Notes under the pieces: generated by a model
Told to the model about the DNA's origin: nothing
Seen by the model: only the letters and a program-made list of their open reading frames with translations
Databases searched by the model: none
Virus record (IMG/VR): IMGVR_UViG_2778261448_000010
Span: 1 to 24,774 of that record
Length of the DNA: 24,774 bases
DNA from: a virus
Lineage: Duplodnaviria; Heunggongvirae; Uroviricota; Caudoviricetes
Direction: 5' to 3' (one strand)
In this document: positions 427 to 24,774 of the stretch, in pieces
How positions within the stretch are numbered: the stretch's first letter is position 1
How the letters are laid out: each line of letters begins with the position of its first letter
Translations under genes and position numbers: made by a program

Positions 427-2559
427 TCACTTAAAAGGAGTGTTTATCCTAACAACTCTCAAATAAACATCTCTTATATTTTCACCTCCATTTGGCCTTA
501 AAACTGTTGCTGAAATAACTCCACTTTGTGAAGCAGATACTGTTGCGTTATATACTAATGAACTATTGAATTGTTGAGCGTGTATTTGCCTTGATGTTGT
601 TTCAATTTGCTCTCCGGCTCTCATCATAACTGCATGTTCTGAAAAACACCCGCCAGCACCAGTTGTTGTTGTCGCTGTAACCTCAACTCTATAGAAATAC
701 ATAGCAAGCGTACCTGAGTTTACTGAATTATTTGGAACTGGCACTTGTACGGTTATTGAGACTGGGCCGCTATCAACTCCTGTTGCCTGAGCACACCAGC
801 CAATTTCACCATTCTGAGATATTAATGTGAATATGCATCGATCTTTTGTCCCAGCGTTTACCTGATACGTTGTTGTATAGGTGGCACCATAGAAATGCTC
901 TACGGTTATGGCAGTACCGAAGTTCTCTCCCCAACCAGTCCATGAAGGCCAGATACTGGCATTGCTTTTAATGGCTACGCCATTATTGATGCACTTCAGA
1001 GACACTTTCCCATTATTACAAGAACTCAAGAGCACAGGGACTCCAGGAATGCTGTTCCTTAGTGTTATCTCAACATCCGGCTGCTCTGCGGTTACCAACA
1101 TTAGTGGCTCGACTGTTCTTGGAACCGTATTGAGCGGTATGTTAATCTCCATGTCGCGCACTCGCGTCCTTGTACCGCCACATAGAAATGCGCATACACC
1201 ACCTACATTAGCAGGAAGATAAAGTCGAACACCTTCAAAAGACAAATCAAAAACATCCGATTGAGAATTTGTGATGATTTGAATAAGGTGTATAGGGCCG
1301 TTAACGTTTTCTCCCGTAAAATTACTCTTACTGGTGATGTTTCTGTAAATACCACCTGTTCCTGATACTTTTGCCGCAAACACTGGTGTGTCCGTCATGG
1401 TGCAAACTAAACCATCAACAACACACCCTGTTGACCCCGTGAGTTGTAAAGTTACATTGCAGCCGCCGTATCTGTTAGATAGAAGATTTCCGAACTCACC
1501 ACAGTTTGTTATAGAACCACTAGTGTTATTGATATACATCAGGTGTGACGGACCATACGCACCGAAACTTTCGTCATGCCGCAATGTCCCATACACGTAC
1601 TCAATATTGCATCCTGCAAAGTTGTTAATAAGTGCGCATGAATAGTGTGTACAATAGATGTTAGAGAAGAGAGAGCCTCTAAAATCACCCTCATAACCAG
1701 AAACAAGGAAGTCGTAGCGATTATCGCTGGTTTCACCGACTGCCATCGCATTAATCAATTTGAAACGATACGCGTTTGAATTCATCCCGATAAAGCCACA
1801 GAACGCAGCTTCCCACGGGCGAGTAATTCCATAGCGAGTGGTTGTTGTGCCCCCCAAAGGATAGCCGCCTTTATAGACAGCATTAAATCCCATAATGGTC
1901 ACATCAGGATTCCTGTTCATGAAGACCAGAAATCCAGTTTTCTCATGAGTTATTTTAGCACCGTTAAAATCAATATATGCACCAGCGGGAGGAGTGATGA
2001 CATTTTCCTCATTCATCACCATACGATATGTGGAACCTCTCTTCATGAGGCATCTTCCAGTCATAATAGCATTAGTCACCGCCACTGTATCATCAGCTAC
2101 ACCATCTCCAATTGCTCCATATTGCTCTGGCGTTGCCCAATATGACAAACTATCCGCTACTGTACCAGCCAAGTATCCAATTTTAGTTGCACCATCTTCT
2201 TCAGACAGTTCACTTCGAAATTGATCAGGGTCGTACTTCAGCACATTCGGAAAATAGAACTGCTGCACACCGTACGCATCATAAACAGCCATAGAATGGC
2301 CTTGCACAGTTACGAACTTGGCAATCTGTCCGTTATATACAGGGTAACCAGCAGCGTTAATGATGATTGGTTGCGAAACAGGAACGTGAGAGCCGTCTTC
2401 GTTTTCCACATAAACCTGAATCTGGTTTTCAGGATGTACAGGGTCAGTGTCAATTTTTCCGATATAAATTTTGCCATTGGCTACGGCTTTAAAAGATCGC
2501 GCCATAGTGAAGAGTTGCGAAGGCATCGATACGATCACATTGGCTGTAATGTCTGTCAT
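427..2559 (-). CDS. Tailspike protein (P22 gp9-like head-binding domain, HK620-like length)
   Basis: The 710-aa ORF starts [13 protein letters not shown]...[19 protein letters not shown]...[12 protein letters not shown]...NVLKYDPDQ, matching the conserved N-terminal head-binding domain of P22 tailspike. The remainder differs from P22 gp9. 710 aa is the length I recall for the HK620 tailspike. RBS GGAG lies upstream of the ATG. Confidence 0.9.
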
Positions 2560-2659: not shown

Positions 2660-3590
2660 TCAGTAGTTATGTACTGAAGGAGGCAATTCTTTATTCTTAA
2701 GTCTCATCCATGCGGAAAGATTCGTTGGTCCGTCTGGCTCATTAATATCAACATCTCGTGTGTGGTTTATTAAAACGTCTCTCGCCATTCCGATAACATA
2801 CGAGAATTCATGACCGTAGTCGTAGCATCTGCCGGAATAGTTCGATTGAATTTGTTTTAGCGCCGGATACAGTTCGCGGAATAATGCCTGTGAGCGGTTG
2901 GCATAATCCCATAACCATACAAGGCTGTTTGCTTCTTTTGCAGAAAGCTCGTTGGTTTTCTTCTCTTGTTTGCCAATGAACTCACCTTCAAGTGGAACTC
3001 GAGCTGCAAGTGACAGTGCTTCGGTAAACTGCTCCTCACTGATTTCTTTGTACGAACATCCAAAATGGGATTTCAGTGACGACCACATGGTGATCATCGC
3101 CTTAGCCTGTTTTTCTTTTGGCAGAGACTGACCGCGACTCATGACGAGTTGTTTAATGGCTTCCTGCTGTTCAGTGGTGATTTTACCCGGCAACGCCTTT
3201 TTAGCTTTGCGTGGGTTAACTACATGGCCTTTAGTCCAGTACTCATAGAGCACATCGTCACACTCTTCCTGATACTGGATTACATTGTCGCGGATTTCAG
3301 GACGGACTTTGTTAGGGCTGATGGTTTGCAGCCAACCTGCAAGTTTGCGAAGTGCCAAACAAATAATCTCACGGCACTGTTCATCACCAGGAAGCTGCAT
3401 TGTGATTTTCACAATGGAGGTTTTAAACCGTTGCTTTATTTTCGTAAACTGTGAAGCCCAATCCATACCCATGCCTATCAACGATAGGTTTCATTGGGGT
3501 GTACGGTTCACCGTTGTGATTGACGACATAAAGCTCTGCGCCGTGGAATGGCACGTTGATAGTAGATACTGCCGTTGCTATACTTTTCAT
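2660..3590 (-). pseudogene. Antirepressor-like gene (P22 Ant N-terminal domain family) disrupted by a 1-bp frameshift
   Basis: A 55-codon ORF from ATG 3588-3590 ([38 protein letters not shown]...) ends at stop 3423-3425. The 273-aa track ORF (2660-3481, TTG start) continues the same domain in another frame ([14 protein letters not shown]...LPGDEQ...RKLAGWL...[12 protein letters not shown]...[15 protein letters not shown]). Removing the minus-strand A at about 3476 would fuse them into ...[16 protein letters not shown]... Confidence 0.6.
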
Positions 3591-3678
3591 GTCAGTTTTT
3601 CCTCAAAATTTACTGACGATTTAAGCCCGAGCTACTCGCAATAGGTTGTTTGATGGGTAAATCATGATTACTCCTTAT

Positions 3679-3700
3679 AAAAAACCCACCTGACGGTGGG
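3679..3700. terminator. Bidirectional intrinsic terminator-like hairpin downstream of the lipoprotein gene
   Basis: Hairpin CCCACC-tgac-GGTGGG (3685-3700) is flanked by AAAAAA on one side and TTTCATTTCTT on the other, giving a U-tract on both strands. Confidence 0.65.
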
Positions 3701-3709
3701 TTTCATTTC

Positions 3710-4141
3710 TTAATCTTGCTTCGTGGAAGGTATAAGAGATGCATTTGCCTCTTTTGGCTTCAATGTATACATCCCACCATTAAATGGATCAACAGCAAGC
3801 CAACCGATTAACCCACCAAACACAAGGTTTCCACCAATATACCAACCATTAGCATTGGCTTTGATTGGCAGGGTAACTGGTTCGTACCCATCCTTCTCCA
3901 TAGTGATCTGGTAGCTCTTTTTGCCAAAATAACTACCATCTGACTTGGCAAGAGTTACTCCTTGCGGGGTCTTACCTTGCGCAACAATCACGCCTGATTC
4001 GTCTTTTACCTTAAAGCTCGCACCGGAAGGGTTGCTGTTCACTTGCACAAGTTGCGTTTCATCACCAACAATAGTTGCGCACCCAGATAACATCATAGCA
4101 CCAGCAACGACGCCAATAATCCTCTTCATATCAATTTCCAT
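3710..4141 (-). CDS. Predicted outer-membrane lipoprotein with PEGA-like domain (moron; possible superinfection exclusion)
   Basis: The ORF has signal peptide MKRIIGVVAGAMMLSGC with lipobox LSGC, and Ala follows the Cys. The likely true start is the second ATG at 4127-4129. The central segment resembles a PEGA-type beta domain (...GKTPQGVTL...SYQITMEKDGYEPVTLPI) and the C-terminus is Gly-rich (GWYIGGNLVFGGLIGW). It has its own downstream terminator. Confidence 0.75.
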   Translation of the reverse strand: MEIDMKRIIGVVAGAMMLSGCATIVGDETQLVQVNSNPSGASFKVKDESGVIVAQGKTPQGVTLAKSDGSYFGKKSYQITMEKDGYEPVTLPIKANANGWYIGGNLVFGGLIGWLAVDPFNGGMYTLKPKEANASLIPSTKQD

Positions 4142-4246
4142 ATTTAAAAAACCGGAAACATCCTAATGACAAACCATTCAAATGTGAAGTAGGCAAAAGA
4201 TGTTTACTTTTTTCATGGTATCCTGCACAAAACTAAGGAGGTTGGC

Positions 4247-4570
4247 GTGTATACAACAGTTATCGTGATAGCTATCGCACTCATTGTGGTTCAGTACCAA
4301 CTGGCATCTTTAAAACAAAAGATATCTGACCTCAAGACTGAGAACGAAGCACTTAAAAACTCAATAAAAGATGAGAAGAACAAACTATCATTCACTATAT
4401 CTGATATTGAGCAATCCATTGAAATTATTGAGAATAATATTAACAGACTAAAAAAAGAAGATATTCATGAAATCAATGACAATATCAAGGATTTGAAATC
4501 TTGGCTTAGGAATGTAGGACAAATCGCCACATCAACACGAGATAAGCTCAATCCATCCATGGATGATTAA
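4247..4570 (+). CDS. Small bitopic membrane protein with N-terminal TM helix and coiled coil (moron of unknown function)
   Basis: This is the only convincing plus-strand gene. GTG start is preceded by a strong SD TAAGGAGG (4234-4241) with 5-nt spacing. The hydrophobic N-terminus is YTTVIVIAIALIVVQY, followed by a K/E/N-rich heptad-like region. Composition is visibly AT-rich relative to flanking structural genes. Its stop TAA (4568-4570) abuts the gp16 stop (4571-4573). Confidence 0.7.
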   Translation: MYTTVIVIAIALIVVQYQLASLKQKISDLKTENEALKNSIKDEKNKLSFTISDIEQSIEIIENNINRLKKEDIHEINDNIKDLKSWLRNVGQIATSTRDKLNPSMDD

Positions 4571-6697
4571 TTACTCCTGTGCTATTCCGCTTAGCGACGC
4601 TACAATGCCAGCCCTCGCTAAGCGATTGAACTCTTCGTTTCCAACTGCATCACGTATTGCTTTTACGGCGGCTTTATTTGCCATAAATCTGCGTTCCGCT
4701 GCCGCTAATGCTTCTTTGCTTCCGCCTGTTCTTACTGCTTTAGTGGCTTCCTGAACTGCTTTCTCTATCGCATACCGACCACTACGTGTGGTGGCAATTT
4801 TAGATACAGCGCCTTTTAACCCAGCGCCAACTAAAGCACCTGCGGCAGCGCCTGCAATGCCTCCTCCAGCGCCACCAACAATGGCACCTGATGTTGAGTT
4901 GGCAATTGCATTTAACACTGTTGATGTGACGTTGGATAAACCAGCATCCAGATCGCGTAGTACATTGGCAGTTCTCCCTGTTCTTTCAATATACTGCTGA
5001 GGTTTCACTGCTGCTCTTGCAAGAGTGCCATACGCATCAGCAATTCTTCCAAGCTCTGAGGAATATCTGCTAATGGCTTTTACATTTTGTGGAGTGAGTA
5101 TCTCTGCGATATGGTTAATTCCTGCTGCATCAGCTTTGCCACCACGTACACCATGCGAGATGGCATCCTGCAACATTGATGATATAGCAGGAACACGCTC
5201 TGATTCTGGCAGCGCGCGGATCATAGAATGGAATCCAGCAGGACCATTAAGGCCTTTAGCTGACGATGATTGAAGAGATTTTACTCCATTCGTAATCAGT
5301 GCATCTGTTGCCAAATCACGCCCAAAGACAGACTCTGCACTCTCTTGTGCGGATAACCTCGCTTTAGACAGATCATTAGCTTTTTGCCAGTCATCAAGAA
5401 ATCCGCCGTTTTCCGCCATTGTGCGCATATCATCAGTAATTGCCCGGCGTATTTCCCCTGCTCTCCTTGCCGCATTTGCCTCTCCGCTACGCTTATATTT
5501 TTGCTCCGCATCAGCAAATTTCGCTCTCCATGCTTTCATGCCATCAAATGTTACTCCACCTTGATTGTTTGCCTGAACAAACTGTTTCATTTCAGGAGTA
5601 AGCGGTATGCCAGCAGATCGCTCTGCCTGAATAACGGCATTACCATTTAGCATTCTTGCTTTTTGATTTGGCATTGTTGACCGCACGTCATCCCATGCCG
5701 CGCGCTCGGCATCCTTCATCTGATCAAGATTTTGAAGAATCCTTTGTTTTATAGCCGCACTTTTTTCTGATGCCGTTCCAGATGCGGCCCCAAATTCATC
5801 AAGGTTTCGACTTAACTTTGATGATATTTCGTTAAATGCTGCCTGATGGGCGTCCTGAACAATTCCTGGTGTTGATGCCAATGCTCCTTCGGCTTGTGCA
5901 ATTCCACGACTTCCAGATCGCATTCCTGGTGTTAATGCGTTTATATCAATTCCAGCAGACTCAGCCGCTTTTGCTACATCTTCGGACACATTAGCGGCCT
6001 GACTGGCAATTGACTGACGCCCAGCACCTGACTTTGCCATCCTGGAAACATCATTAGCAGAATTCAGTGCTGCACCACCAAGAGCCTGTGAAACCCTTGG
6101 CGCAATAACGCGCCCAAAACCTGAAAGAACGCCTTGAGCGCCAATATTGATACCACCGTTAATGGCAGCATTTTGTGCAAAGTCGCCCTCCTGATTTGCA
6201 GCATCAGCAAGAGAACCTGCAATCATGTTTCCTGCGGAACCGATGTCTCCTGCGAGCTTTGCTGGCGCTCCAGCAGCTTTTGCCGCTGTGCCAATTGGCA
6301 GGAGATACCCACCAATTGTTTCACCAGCTTGCGCGTAAGGGTCTGTCGGTCTGTCTACTGGACGATAAACATCATCCAAAACCTTGGGGCCACCAAGCCC
6401 CTGACTGATTGCATTAATCAGACTTGCGCCACCCTGCAATACGTCAAATGGTATGTTTACCAGACCACGACCAGCCTGTTCTGCAATTTGCCCTGCACTT
6501 TGACCACCAGTGAGCCAATCGCCAGCTTTTTGCATCAATGATGGTTCTTCACGTGCTGGTTCATTGCTATCCTGGCTGACAGTTTGTTGCTGAACAGACT
6601 GTCCAGCAAAATACTCATCAATGGCAGATCCAATATCTTCCGTGCTCGTACCATCAGGGAAGGTAAATGTCTTACCGTTTGCAGTTACTTTCATCAT
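4571..6697 (-). CDS. Ejection (E) protein gp16-like
   Basis: The 708-aa ORF begins [33 protein letters not shown], matching the P22 gp16 N-terminus as I recall it. It sits after gp20 in the conserved order 7-20-16. Confidence 0.85.
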
Positions 6698-8100
6698 TCC
6701 ACCGTAAATTGAATGCCTGATTTTGAGGTATATGATCCAACCTGATTCCGTGGTTCTCCTGAAGGTATCGAATCTTGTGCTGGCGCTGCGTCAGTATTCA
6801 ATGACATATACCGCTTAACAGCACTCCCCAATGATTCACCTTTTTTAACATCCAACCCCAATATCTGACCGCCATTACGCGATTGTCCAGGGTTGCCATT
6901 CGCGCTCATCCACTCAGCTTTAAACTCATTAAACTGCGCGTTTCGTCGCTCAAGGTTTGCCATTGCATCAAGCCATCTTGCGACCGTCTCAGGGTTATCC
7001 ATGTCAGTTGGCGCACCCTGTCTAACGATCTCAACGTCTTTATCCGTTGCTGGGCCGGGAGGTAGGAATTTAAGAACCTGACTGTTAACAAGGGCATTTT
7101 GGCGAATGCGCAAATCACGCAATGTCGTATCGCTTCCGGTAAGTTTTGCGAACATGTTCTGTGCGTTACCGAACAAACCTGTCGTTGGTTTTTCTGCTCT
7201 GAACTGTTGAGCAAGCGCACTCATAGAATTGGCTGAGTTTGATGATGCTGTGGCATTGTTTACAGCCGTCTCGATGCCTTTTTCCATGTTTACTGACAGC
7301 TTAGGTGCTTCGCTAATCAACTGCTGAGCCTTTTCCTGCGCTTGCTGCATCTTAAACCCGAACTCTTGCTGATCCAGAGCCAAGCGTTGTGCTGCGATAT
7401 TGTGCCCAGTCATTGCTGACTGATAGGAAAGGTTTTGCCCTCTCGCCTGAAGTGCTTCTCCGGCCTGATTGCTGCGGATTGTCTCTGCCAGCCTGCCTCG
7501 GTCAATCTCACGACCAGCCATCTTGTCCTGAACATTGAAGTAGTCAATCGGACCAAGAGCAGCCATTCCAAGGTGATCAACAAACTCACCAAATCCTGAA
7601 GGGTTCTGCTGATACATCTGAGCAACACTGTTAGGGTCAACACCGACGCGAGTCAGTTCCTTGGCGTTGTTTTGCAGCCATGATTGCATTGCTTCTGGAG
7701 ACGATGACGCAAGGCGTGCGCCAGCCGCTAAGGTGCCGATAGAATTACGCTGGTCTTCATCAATGAATCCCATGCCTTTACGAACGGATTCAATCTGGTC
7801 TGGATATTGAGTAGCCAACTGACGCAAAGCACCGCGATCACCAGACGCATAAGCATTAGCGTATGCCTGCTGAAATTCTTTCTGCCGCTGAGCCTGCTTT
7901 TCCTGCTGAAACACCCCCGCAATACCTGAAAGGCCTTGCAAAGCAGTCAGCCCAACATTGTTAGCGCCTGAACGCTCAATATCATTGTTCTGCCTAATAA
8001 GTTGAAGCGTATTGCCGATGTCATTTACGCTCGGAGCGTTTGAGTTGACGCCGCCGATACCAGCCAACAATCCGCCGTTTGTTCCTTGCCAAGTAGCCAT
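6694..8100 (-). CDS. Ejection (E) protein gp20-like
   Basis: The 468-aa ORF ([17 protein letters not shown]...) has the size and position of P22 gp20; its start overlaps the gp16 region. Confidence 0.8.
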
Positions 8101-19626: not shown

Positions 19627-20064
19627 TCATAGAAGGCATTGCGTCCTGATGTATTCCTGCAAGTAGTTAACCTGCGCGGTTATCCTGTCGATTCCACTTC
19701 GGAGACGGTAATAATTGAGTTCAGCATCTGCTGTAAGTCTTGGGCTTTCTCCATCGCCCATGCTGCTGGCTCCGGTCGTTGACTTTGTACAGGTGGCGGC
19801 GACTTGCAGGCGCTTACGACCAGCAGAAACATCAGCACGGAGACTTTCGATAGTCGCGTTAGCATCAGCAAGCTCCTTTGTGTATCTGGCGTCGAGTTCT
19901 GCTACATCACGTTGACGCTTCTGCATGTCAGCGATGATGTACGTGGCCTTATCACGCTGCTCTTTGTAGGCGATTGCGTTATCACGGTAATGATTAACAG
20001 CCCATGACAGACAGACGATGATGCAAATAACCAGAGCGGAGATAATCGCGGTTACTCTGCTCAT
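19627..20064 (-). CDS. Rz: Rz i-spanin
   Basis: The 145-aa [40 protein letters not shown]... is near-identical to the lambda Rz N-terminus as I recall it. Its start overlaps the R stop (ATGA). Confidence 0.9.
19680..19871 (-). CDS. Rz1: Rz1 o-spanin lipoprotein embedded in Rz (+1 frame)
   Basis: The 63-aa ORF lies wholly inside Rz. It has a signal peptide with lipobox LVVSAC followed by a proline-rich segment, as in lambda Rz1. Confidence 0.8.
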
Positions 20065-23640: not shown

Positions 23641-23813
23641 TTCCTCGCACGATGTCTTAGCCACCGGATATCCCACAGGTGAGCCGTGTAGTTGAAGGTT
23701 TTTACGTCAGATTCTTTTGGGATTGGCTTGCGTTTATTTCTGGAGCGTTTCGTTGGAAGGTATTTGCAGTTTTCACAGATTATGTCGGTGATACTTCGTC
23801 GCTGTCGTCTCAT
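23637..23813 (-). CDS. Small basic nin-region protein (NinD/NinE-like, CxxC)
   Basis: Likely start at ATG 23811-23813 ([30 protein letters not shown]...), overlapping the methyltransferase stop as ATGA. About 58 aa. Confidence 0.5.
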
Positions 23814-24337
23814 GCTGCCCTCCTGACGCCCTGCCCGATCGCCATCAATGCCGCTTTGGATACGGTAGTAAACATCCGTCGAGGACTGATGAACGGTCGC
23901 CAAATCAGCAGCATGGAACCTTTGCTGTTTCCCTTCTTCTCCAGCCCTGTCGATGGTTCGATAAAATTAATCCGTCCATCAGTGATAATGCGAACTTCGT
24001 CGACACTCTCCAGAGCCTTACTGAACCATCCGACTGACATATCCTCTGGCACAAGCATAACTACCGTCTGTCGCTGTTGTATGCACTGCTCAGCGGCTTT
24101 TTCCACCCACGGCCTGATATTGCTGTACGGTGGGTTATTCCAGATTGCACCGTGGCTTATCCACTCAGAATTTAGCGCGTCGTCGGCCTCAGTTAGCCAG
24201 TGAGCGCACAGAGCATTTTTGTCGCTCGCTGCCGAATCCAGCCAGAACCCAAACTCAATATCCAGTGCATCAAAAAGCCAAAGCGGCGTTTGCCAGCAGT
24301 CCTTATCGTGTGCTGGCGTATTTGATTTGATAGTCAT
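23810..24337 (-). CDS. Phage DNA N6-adenine methyltransferase (Dam-like, NPPY motif)
   Basis: The ORF contains the catalytic motif NPPY ([14 protein letters not shown]) and the N-terminal motif [13 protein letters not shown] typical of phage Dam-family methyltransferases. Likely start at ATG 24335-24337, overlapping the NinB stop as ATGA. Confidence 0.75.
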
Positions 24338-24774
24338 GCAGCCCGATCTCCCCATCTTGCTTTCCACTCCAGAGCCAGTCGCGCTTCGTCTGACCACTTA
24401 ACGCCATGTTCTGTACCGAATGCCTGTATAAGCTCTAATAGCTCCGCAAATTCGCTTACACGCATCCTGCTGGTTGACTGGCCTATTACCACAAAGCCAT
24501 TCCCGGCAAGGTTAGGAACAACGTCCTGCTGCTTTAATGCTGCGGTAAACACGCACTTCCAGCTTTCTGCATCCAGCCAGCGACCATGCCATTCAACCTG
24601 ACGAGAGACGTCACCAAGGCAAGCCCAAAGCTTTCGGTTTTGGTCTAAGCTGCGGTTGCGTTCCTGAATGGTTACTACGATTGGTTTGGTTGGGTCTGGA
24701 AGAATTTGCTGTACCGCGTGAATAGCGTTTTGCTGATGTGCTGGAGATCGAATTTCAAAGGTTAGTTTTTTCAT
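24334..24774 (-). CDS. ninB: NinB (Orf-family recombination mediator)
   Basis: The 146-aa ORF MKKLTFEIRSPAHQQNAIHAVQQILPDPTKPIVVTIQERNRSLDQNRKLWACLGDVS... is near-identical to lambda NinB as I recall it. Its ATG is the last three bases of the window. Confidence 0.9.
   Translation of the reverse strand: MKKLTFEIRSPAHQQNAIHAVQQILPDPTKPIVVTIQERNRSLDQNRKLWACLGDVSRQVEWHGRWLDAESWKCVFTAALKQQDVVPNLAGNGFVVIGQSTSRMRVSEFAELLELIQAFGTEHGVKWSDEARLALEWKARWGDRAA

Follow-up and report, generated by a model that had tools for sequence, protein, structure and literature searches.

A plus-strand ORF abutting gene 16 in an E. coli P22-like prophage corresponds to hkcB, a cargo gene with a possible role in interference with superinfecting phages

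The window analysed here, a stretch of 24,774 nucleotides comprising positions 1 to 24,774 of IMG/VR record IMGVR_UViG_2778261448_000010, carries a plus-strand ORF (4247-4570) whose stop codon directly abuts that of a gene 16 homologue on the opposite strand. By homology, this ORF is the already named gene hkcB of P22-like phages. Its setting further identifies it as a cargo ('moron') gene of the ant moron, flanked by gene 16 and the tailspike gene in a P22-like (Lederbergvirus) prophage of E. coli. The features of the locus are as follows.

427 to 2559, minus strand: tailspike gene (PF09008 Head_binding, E = 5.8e-66)
3710 to 4141, minus strand: divergent lipoprotein-type moron gene, by its matches a homologue of epsilon34 gp15 (PHROG 6823)
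4178 to 4216, minus strand: relic of the hkcC 5′ end, read from the sequence (it starts MKKVNI and then diverges, stopping after 12 codons)
4200 to 4250, plus strand: portable leader/junction, which by identity also lies upstream of sieA and further P22-like cargo genes
4216 to 4224, plus strand: TGGTATCCT, candidate extended -10 for hkcB, read from the sequence
4234 to 4241, plus strand: Shine-Dalgarno sequence TAAGGAGG, 5 nt before the GTG
4247 to 4570, plus strand: hkcB CDS, 107 aa, GTG start, TAA stop (PHROG 5962, alignment, dN/dS, AF2, PGAP CDS WP_000288816.1)
4568 to 4573, spanning both genes: stop/stop junction TAATTA, in which the hkcB TAA (4568-4570) runs straight into TTA (4571-4573), the gene 16 TAA read on the other strand
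4571 to 6697, minus strand: gene 16 homologue, ejection/DNA transfer protein of 708 aa, CUS-3/HK620 type (PF26808 on homologues)
4571 to 4795, minus strand: coding region of the gp16 C-terminal domain (…SGRYAIEKA…AAAERRF…), found with hkcB in every locus examined
4588 to 4624, inside the gene 16 3′ end: perfect 10-bp inverted repeat with a 17-nt loop, without a U-tract (z = -3.5)

The window protein matches PHROG 5962 over its full length (residues 1-107 against profile positions 3-109 of 109, E = 1.4e-58), and the same CDS is annotated by PGAP (WP_000288816.1) and in three phage records. Judged by these matches, the plus-strand ORF is not a new observation: hkcB is annotated in HK620 (NP_112088), CUS-3 (ABQ88389) and epsilon34 (gene 14, encoding gp14; YP_002533473). 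In alignment A1, window HkcB shares 100% identity with the epsilon34 protein, 98% with that of CUS-3 and 51% with that of HK620 (99.1%, 97.2% and 56.5%, respectively, by tblastn), and the three phage copies match window hkcB in length, position, orientation and stop-to-stop junction with gene 16. The upstream neighbour differs among them, being an epsilon34-type lipoprotein gene in the window, hkcC in HK620 and co-oriented ORFs in CUS-3. A gene named as an hkcB homologue was also placed within the ant moron by Villafane 2008 (PMC2629481), where a moron denotes an operon insert with independent expression. The database records and papers that we found assign no function to hkcB, and literature searches with hkcB, its accessions and PHROG 5962 turned up only the epsilon34 genome paper and no experimental or transcript evidence on the gene. 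The name hkcB was not recognised in the first-pass annotation.

To judge from its substitution pattern, hkcB is a genuine protein-coding gene under purifying selection. Pairwise dN/dS between diverged copies ranges from 0.09 to 0.42, and substitutions pile up at codon position 3 (for example, 32/14/51). The gene has been conserved across more than 70 loci, and at least 90 of 5426 complete E. coli genomes carry a near-full-length copy. The coordinates, the GTG start, the TAAGGAGG Shine-Dalgarno sequence and the TAATTA junction had all been read correctly in the first-pass annotation. That annotation had also named, as one finding that would overturn its reading, an artefact of a longer minus-strand gene, and this is not borne out, no minus-strand ORF longer than 40 aa overlapping hkcB. 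The broader reading in which the ORF is a chance or shadow ORF, or such an artefact, and there is no gene at all could draw on the many long plus-strand shadow ORFs of the window, but its probability is negligible. The Shine-Dalgarno sequence is strong, dN/dS is far below 1, the end codon of gene 16 is identical in all homologues, and the conservation pattern across the loci compared already refutes it. The description of hkcB as the only credible plus-strand gene likewise stands: the sole other plus-strand ORF with a family match (23679-24203, phrog_37455) overlaps in antisense a phage gene for a full-length N6-adenine methyltransferase (TIGR01712, 23810-24397, minus strand), most likely as a shadow ORF.

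The sequence immediately upstream places hkcB in a known variable slot. TAAGGAGG (TAAGGGGG in CUS-3) is present in all seven loci of alignment A2, and a Shine-Dalgarno-like match precedes hkcB in 57 of 62 IMG/VR loci. Window positions 4200-4250 are 96-98% identical to ST160, SE1 and As3, and homology to the sieA-type phages stops just past the start codon. In As3, and at 94% in E. coli FDAARGOS_1251, the same leader precedes sieA; in E. coli ETEC1749 it precedes a 122-aa ORF. Because this leader of about 50 nt is shared at 94-98% identity, Shine-Dalgarno sequence included, we interpret hkcB and sieA as alternative cassettes in one slot. The contents of the slot vary: gene 16 is followed directly by the tailspike gene in Huey, P22-type phages carry sieA, and ETEC1749 carries the 122-aa ORF. 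Type-A sieA occurs in none of the 62 hkcB loci. On the divergent side, the hkcC relic marks the breakpoint at which the lipoprotein cassette replaced hkcC, and the lipoprotein gene is furnished with a promoter-like site (4188-4160, minus strand) and a hairpin terminator (3682-3703).

The possible extended -10 that had been proposed for hkcB, TGGTATCCT, is conserved in 47 of the 62 loci across at least six upstream contexts. Its role as a promoter does not follow from this conservation, because the TATCCT within it doubles as the complement of the AGGA Shine-Dalgarno sequence of the divergent hkcC (ATG read as CAT at 4214-4216; reverse complement GCAGGATACCATG). A promoter scan, which needs a -35, returned no sigma-70 match for hkcB.

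At its 3′ end, hkcB converges on gene 16 in every locus examined (more than 60). No nucleotide separates the two stops in 59 of 60 IMG/VR loci, the same TAATTA-type junction recurs in eight of eight phage and prophage loci, and the two most distant relatives show a spacing of 3-4 nt. A single type of gp16 C-terminal domain stands beside hkcB in all 60 loci, and the hkcB family is restricted to P22-like prophages, only beside this one gp16 type. Since no nucleotide separates the two genes, this linkage can be explained by physical adjacency alone. Their head-on arrangement is the normal layout of the region in P22-like phages. The product of gene 16, gp16, is a membrane-penetrating ejection protein.

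The remark that no terminator lies between the two genes is trivially true, with 0 nt between their stops, and a scan of the plus strand at 4571-5000 returned no intrinsic terminator. The inverted repeat at 4588-4624 is possibly an RNA 3′-end or processing element that is not specific to hkcB. It was rejected as a conserved hkcB terminator: a U-tract and compensatory changes are both lacking, Huey has the repeat without having hkcB, and HK620, SEN22 and L013 have lost it. The hairpin is also found in L014, with a different sequence. Downstream of hkcB, the composition of the plus strand has C in excess of G.

Because the tailspike gene lies downstream on the late strand (427-2559, minus), late transcription must cross hkcB antisense, as the first-pass annotation had proposed, and such crossing is an established feature of the P22 immI/'ant moron' region (Villafane 2008, PMC2629481). 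Its companion claim, that the hkcB transcript runs antisense into gene 16, is equally sound: with 0 nt between the stops, this is unavoidable for any putative hkcB transcript. The mutually exclusive lysogenic and lytic expression that the first-pass annotation derived from this layout is conjectural for hkcB. Transcription of P22 sieA is reported to be low in the lysogen and up-regulated on induction (Leavitt 2024, PMC10883804), a pattern that, by analogy, does not fit strict lysogenic/lytic exclusivity for the slot. Regulation of hkcB may also differ between phages, the gene following co-oriented genes in CUS-3-type and L013-type contexts.

A transcript of this kind raises the alternative that the hkcB RNA is itself the functional product, a cis-antisense RNA that would destabilise the late mRNA of incoming or induced phages with the same gene 16 end, the protein being secondary. 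A precedent exists in STnc6030 of the P22-like prophage BTP1, a lysogen-expressed RNA antisense to the tailspike 5′ end and to the gene 16 homologue's 3′ end, which excludes BTP1 and is escaped by SNPs that fall in a 36-bp stretch at that homologue's 3′ end (Owen 2020, PMC7067206). The constant 0-nt spacing in 59 of 60 loci and the stable hairpin located 17 nt beyond the stop of hkcB (z = -3.5) are in keeping with an RNA function, as is a pS of 0.34, 0.34 and 0.55 in the last 20 gene 16 codons against about 0.75 elsewhere. However, the low pS relative to HK620 carries on within hkcB and has the appearance of a common mosaic segment, and the hairpin occurs in Huey without hkcB and disappears from HK620, SEN22 and L013 without compensatory changes. 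An RNA product alone would also leave the protein-level purifying selection and the conserved transmembrane and C-terminal motifs unexplained, and we consider this alternative improbable.

The base composition of hkcB bears on the age of the association. The gene is indeed AT-rich (GC 0.33 versus 0.48 for the window), but the proposal that this reflects recent horizontal acquisition fails when GC and codon usage are compared with the flank, GC3 being 0.34 in hkcB versus 0.32 in gene 16. The deficit is confined to codon positions 1 and 2 (GC2 0.24), and the low GC results from the K/N/I/E/D-rich composition of the coiled coil. Identity within the family has fallen to about 50% and dS is saturated, while position and stop-to-stop junction have been kept; this deep divergence at an unchanged position and junction indicates that the association of hkcB with the locus is old.

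HkcB possesses only one hydrophobic segment (residues 1-22), with an N-terminal transmembrane helix at approximately residues 3-19, followed by a body formed of a long helix or coiled coil. AF2 models the protein as a single helix spanning residues 2-101 (pLDDT 80). In the alignment, the transmembrane and C-terminal blocks are conserved, the latter with the motif WxxNVGxIAxSTRDK starting at W86. No member of the family has K or R before the transmembrane helix and each has about three directly after it, so that, by the positive-inside rule of thumb, the most likely topology is N-terminus out with a cytoplasmic coiled coil.

Profile searches of Pfam, NCBIfam, PADLOC and the PDB with HkcB gave generic coiled-coil matches only, those among the PADLOC defence models being of coiled-coil type at E of at least 6e-4 (SMC-like JetC, LmuB and PbeC). 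A profile search of 1.84 billion representatives revealed no informative distant relatives; it returned a few small proteins with a transmembrane helix and coiled coil in the same genomic context, and HkcB itself forms only a handful of 50% clusters there. Genome contigs scanned for hkcB yielded nothing, and the IMG/VR scan took their place. BLASTP against all window proteins showed no mimicry of the phage's own proteins.

Two candidate identities were rejected. As an Rz-type i-spanin, HkcB has only PHROG matches at E of about 1e-3, lies outside the lysis cassette and is on the strand opposite the late operon. As FtsB/DivIC, it scores 21.5 bits against PF04977 where the cut-off is 28.9, and FtsB was not retrieved from the PDB.

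The same similarities underlie two alternative functions. The weak matches to Rz-like spanins and the reported up-regulation of P22 sieA on induction would accord with a role in the phage lytic cycle (injection, lysis timing or tailspike dosage), in which the convergent promoter would mainly interfere with tailspike read-through. This is very unlikely: the window carries its own lambda-like Rz within the lysis cassette (19627-20064), hkcB is oriented against the late operon, and Huey, Dewey, Louie and phiSG1 are viable with the same gp16 type and without any moron. A pure interference role, moreover, would not conserve the protein. Alternatively, HkcB could be a lysogenic-conversion protein aimed at the host envelope, for example a divisome mimic of FtsB/FtsL/DivIC type. 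HkcB resembles FtsB and DivIC in size and architecture (short N-tail, transmembrane helix, coiled coil), sub-threshold matches to PF04977 DivIC are in register (residues 7-45 versus profile positions 7-45) in eight of 17 family members, NCBIfam FtsL_Actino also matches below threshold, and the gene is oriented as prophage-expressed cargo of the region. Nevertheless, all of these matches fall under curated cut-offs amid generic coiled-coil matches, the PDB profile search did not retrieve FtsB, and N-tails lacking positive charge suggest a topology opposite to that of FtsB. Restriction of the family to P22-like prophages beside one gp16 type points to a phage-specific role, and a host-envelope target thus appears unlikely, if less so than an RNA product.

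Our best explanation, advanced tentatively and by analogy with SieA, is that HkcB is made by the prophage, sits in the inner membrane and hinders related P22-like phages from injecting their DNA. We infer that the prophage would express hkcB independently of the late operon and in the opposite direction, and that HkcB would insert into the inner membrane. There it could impede DNA delivery from superinfecting P22-like phages equipped with a CUS-3/HK620-type gp16/gp20 conduit, acting as a functional analogue of SieA and not as a homologue; sequence and profile searches showed no similarity of HkcB to SieA or any defence family. In the lysogen, the hkcB transcript would continue, no longer translated, along the C-rich antisense strand of gene 16, probably until Rho-dependent termination. 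During lytic growth, antiterminated late transcription antisense through hkcB should damp its expression.

A more ambitious form of this proposal, which we hold as speculative, would make HkcB an unrecognised, non-SieA class of superinfection exclusion: a single-pass coiled-coil blocker of the CUS-3/HK620-type ejection conduit, whose mRNA might add a second, antisense layer against the gene 16 3′ end. If so, one gene would combine protein and antisense-RNA functions. As found, hkcB is an ordinary gene that had been annotated before, within a variable region of P22-like phages that is well described. It merits a small note and is a good candidate for testing because it is common, occupies the sieA slot behind the leader of that one characterised exclusion gene, and is inseparable from one gp16 type. 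It thereby lends itself to an inexpensive and specific test for a second mechanism of injection blocking, and a hybrid-phage toolkit already exists (Leavitt 2024, PMC10883804).

Comparison with known systems places these proposals in context. Like STnc6030, the putative hkcB transcript lies on the strand opposite the late operon and overlaps the gene 16 homologue's 3′ end in antisense. STnc6030, by contrast, starts inside the tailspike gene and reportedly contains no ORF longer than 60 aa, whereas hkcB is an ORF of 107 aa under purifying selection and is thus not non-coding; the C-terminus of BTP1 gp16 also differs.

T4 Imm and Sp and HK97 gp15 are small inner-membrane proteins of a resident phage that act against DNA entry. 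They are not known to share homology or architecture with HkcB and are conceptual analogues only.

The closest comparison is with SieA of P22, whose promoter, PsieA, was reportedly defined by Hofer in 1995. HkcB was rejected as a member of the SieA family (PHROG 7745, types A to C): the two show no sequence or profile similarity, and phrog_7745 is absent from the HkcB matches, yet it matches As3 SieA at 9e-109. SieA proteins have three to four transmembrane helices, 162-200 aa and the motif FxRYPxEAxxFNK, which is present in As3 SieA, whereas HkcB combines a single transmembrane helix with a coiled coil and lacks the motif. The 199-aa ORF upstream of hkcB in CUS-3 was likewise rejected as a SieA, having neither similarity nor motif. 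The gap to gene 16 is 22 nt for sieA versus 0 nt for hkcB, and the gp16 C-terminus of sieA-carrying phages differs from that beside hkcB. The genetic targets of SieA are the C-terminal parts of gp16 and gp20. SieA and HkcB are nevertheless alike in setting: both are small membrane proteins encoded in a region of prophage-expressed immunity genes, and their genes occupy the same slot, adjoining the gene 16 3′ end and convergent on gene 16.

The window covers the late-operon half of a P22-like (Lederbergvirus) prophage from E. coli, and every late gene lies on the minus strand. CUS-3 is the closest phage overall (70% coverage, 95% identity), while epsilon34 is the closest around the plus-strand gene hkcB (96% identity over 3679-4800). 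The genes flanking hkcB are listed below; the remaining virion genes and the terminase, lysis and Q-like genes lie upstream of gene 20 on the late strand, at higher window coordinates.

427-2559, minus strand, tailspike gene
2660-3590, minus strand, ant
3710-4141, minus strand, lipoprotein gene of the epsilon34 gp15 type (PHROG 6823)
4571-6697, minus strand, gene 16
6694-8100, minus strand, gene 20

The reality of hkcB is near certain and its coding status secure. The ORF stands as the first-pass annotation described it: it runs from a GTG at 4247 to a TAA at 4568-4570 (107 aa), its Shine-Dalgarno sequence TAAGGAGG occupies 4234-4241, 5 nt from the GTG, and its TAA abuts the complement of the gene 16 stop to give TAATTA. 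HK620 and CUS-3 carry this CDS under the name hkcB and epsilon34 carries it as gene 14, while PGAP lists it on E. coli chromosomes as a 107-aa hypothetical protein; its product matches PHROG 5962 (function unknown) from end to end (E=1.4e-58). Between diverged copies (51-74% protein identity), dN/dS is 0.09-0.42, substitutions concentrate at codon position 3, and no overlapping minus-strand ORF longer than 40 aa was found across hkcB; an artefact or chance ORF is excluded. The description of hkcB as the only credible plus-strand gene also holds. The sole other plus-strand ORF with a family match, 23679-24203, matches phrog_37455 over its full length (E=2.5e-118) but is most plausibly a shadow ORF, with a complete phage N6-adenine methyltransferase gene antisense to it (23810-24397, minus strand; TIGR01712, E=4.8e-79). 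The family phrog_37455 itself probably derives from shadow ORFs that were miscalled.

In the epsilon34 genome paper, an hkcB homologue is assigned to the ant moron, the variable region that separates gene 16 from the tailspike gene, and its function is given as unknown (PMC2629481); full-text searches by gene name, accessions and PHROG returned nothing further on HkcB function. Elsewhere in this region of the window, ant is divided into two ORFs, 3423-3590 (55 aa, N-terminal part) and 2660-3481 (273 aa, the rest of P22_AR_N plus P22_AR_C). PGAP annotates ant as two CDSs in E. coli ETEC1749 as well (comparison locus L081, 1249-1422 and 486-1223); the split may represent a pseudogene created by a frameshift, or else a variant common to both. 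In contrast to epsilon34, P22 and the majority of hkcB loci, the window lacks arc and mnt between ant and the lipoprotein gene (3590-3710), where only a promoter-like site (3556-3584, plus strand) and a hairpin terminator (3682-3703) were found; 57 of 62 IMG/VR hkcB loci carry mnt. A functional ant would be without its usual repressors. The lipoprotein gene encodes a signal peptide and Cys, with a weak PEGA-domain match, and has its own promoter-like site (4188-4160) and terminator (3682-3703). As such it forms a classic, self-contained moron, one that took the place of hkcC, the divergent neighbour of hkcB in HK620.

HkcB is predicted to form one continuous helix over residues 2-101 (AlphaFold2, 14-sequence alignment, mean pLDDT 80). 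Its only strongly hydrophobic stretch is residues 1-22, a transmembrane segment conserved across the family with Q16 and Q18 nearly invariant; K, E, N, D and I abound in the remainder. The C-terminus carries a conserved block, W86-x2-N-V-G-x-I-A-x-S-T-R-D-K-x-N-P-S, and the mid-helix varies between members. K and R are absent ahead of the transmembrane helix in every member (some have E there), whereas each has about three in the 15 residues following it; under the positive-inside rule, a cytoplasmic coiled coil is the likelier arrangement. Profile searches of Pfam, NCBIfam, PADLOC and PDB returned only coiled-coil noise below curated cut-offs. Among these, a DivIC/FtsB-like in-register match (21.5 bits, cut-off 28.9) was rejected as unspecific: it recurs in 8 of 17 members, and FtsB was not retrieved from the PDB. 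A role directed at the host membrane, with an FtsB/FtsL-like architecture, is a less likely possibility.

An exhaustive profile search of 1.84 billion representatives yielded only a handful of clusters, and the most distant placeable relatives, P0022 and P0024, occupy the same convergent position. The IMG/VR loci (L017-L078) contain two main HkcB types with a mutual identity of about 50%, the CUS-3/epsilon34 type (26 loci) and the HK620 type (36 loci), both of them conserved at the ends and variable along the central helix. Recent horizontal acquisition had been proposed from the AT-richness of hkcB (GC 0.33, window 0.48). This reading is not supported, given deep family divergence at a fixed position and a GC3 (0.34) in line with gene 16 (0.32) and the tailspike gene (0.37). 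Because the shortfall sits at codon positions 1 and 2 (GC2 0.24), the low GC follows from the amino acids that make up a coiled coil.

The stop-to-stop junction is not peculiar to the window. The two stops are separated by 0 nt (TAATTA or TAACTA) in all eight phage and prophage loci first examined and in 59 of 60 IMG/VR loci, with a spacing of 3-4 nt in the two most distant relatives. Moreover, hkcB occurs only beside gp16, the ejection protein, with one type of C-terminal domain (…SGRYAIEKA…AAAERRF…), a pattern that holds for 60/60 IMG/VR loci, for each of the five sequenced hkcB phages and for the distant relatives; the gp16 C-terminus of sieA-type phages is unrelated. The same gp16 type is found without any moron in Huey, Dewey, Louie, CurroJimenez and phiSG1, and hkcB is therefore dispensable for lytic growth. 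A role for HkcB in the phage's own lytic cycle is an unlikely possibility. Separately, gp16 of CUS-3 (L002 3341-5500) and HK620 (L003 3123-5291) is 77% identical by BLASTP, differing mostly around residues 590-650. This appears inconsistent with the 26% given by Leavitt 2024 (PMC10883804) in arguing that the partial SieA escape of HK620 resides in gp16.

Upstream, the hkcB leader (about 50 nt, window 4200-4250) is 96-98% identical to the stretch directly preceding sieA, the superinfection-exclusion gene, in P22-type Salmonella phages; against that of sieA-carrying E. coli prophages, the identity is 94%. In sieA-type phages homology with the window ends just past the start codon, so that hkcB and sieA represent alternative cassettes sharing a single portable leader; type-A sieA is absent from all 62 hkcB loci. 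The slot behaves as a hotspot of exchangeable cargo. In ETEC1749 (L081 2501-4400), the leader is followed by a 122-aa ORF, further genes including one for a Panacea-domain protein, and gene 16; in SE1 (L004 2517-2891), it precedes an unannotated stretch. Single-copy sieA with 85 bp of upstream DNA suffices for exclusion (Leavitt 2024, PMC10883804), a result consistent with a promoter in or near the leader. The candidate promoter sequence TGGTATCCT, at 4216-4224 upstream of hkcB, recurs in 47 of 62 loci across at least six upstream contexts, although a consensus scan called no promoter there. Its conservation cannot be credited to an hkcB promoter alone, because TATCCT is also the complement of the hkcC AGGA Shine-Dalgarno; the hkcC ATG reads as CAT at 4214-4216, and six hkcC codons survive in the window before the epsilon34-type lipoprotein cassette.

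Collectively, hkcB is a conserved gene for a small single-pass helical protein that opposes the late operon, occupies the slot and follows the leader of sieA, and lies stop-to-stop with one gene 16 type. In P22, this region encodes prophage-expressed immunity functions (mnt, sieA), and antiterminated late transcription traverses it to the tailspike gene (PMC2629481). We tentatively propose, giving the package as a whole somewhat less than even odds, that HkcB would be produced in the lysogen, insert into the inner membrane and hinder DNA delivery by related phages with a CUS-3/HK620-type conduit, and that during lytic growth antisense late transcription would damp its expression. The exclusion function is the weak step. 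The hkcB transcript would run on, untranslated, into the gene 16 antisense strand, whose C-rich, G-poor composition (C/G per 100 nt 31/19, 29/18 and 35/21) favours Rho-dependent termination.

That transcript might instead act itself, as an antisense RNA on the gene 16 3′ end. A direct precedent at the same position is STnc6030 of the P22-like prophage BTP1, which is expressed in the lysogen antisense to the 3′ end of the gene 16 homologue and excludes BTP1, with escape SNPs confined to a 36-bp stretch of the same 3′ end (PMC7067206). The 0-nt junction fits such a role, as does the lower synonymous divergence of the last 20 gene 16 codons (pS 0.34, 0.34 and 0.55 versus about 0.75). Against this unlikely role, hkcB is clearly under protein-level selection, and the hairpin at 4588-4624 is neither hkcB-specific nor maintained by compensation. 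In a comparison that took in loci L007 and L010, this stable hairpin, within those 20 codons, recurs in Huey (L011), which lacks hkcB; it has a different sequence and pairing register in the distant relative L014 (z=-5.2) and is lost in HK620, SEN22 and L013. It may be an RNA processing or 3′-end element of the late or antisense transcript.

Our analysis adds the leader common with sieA, the universal 0-nt junction, the absolute tie to one gp16 C-terminal type and the reassessed AT-richness. As a candidate for a second mechanism of exclusion among P22-like phages, hkcB is good and inexpensive, though nothing here would surprise a specialist. The initial observation was correct and the geometry is real, but it is the normal, already published ant moron organization of P22-like phages, and the gene was already named.
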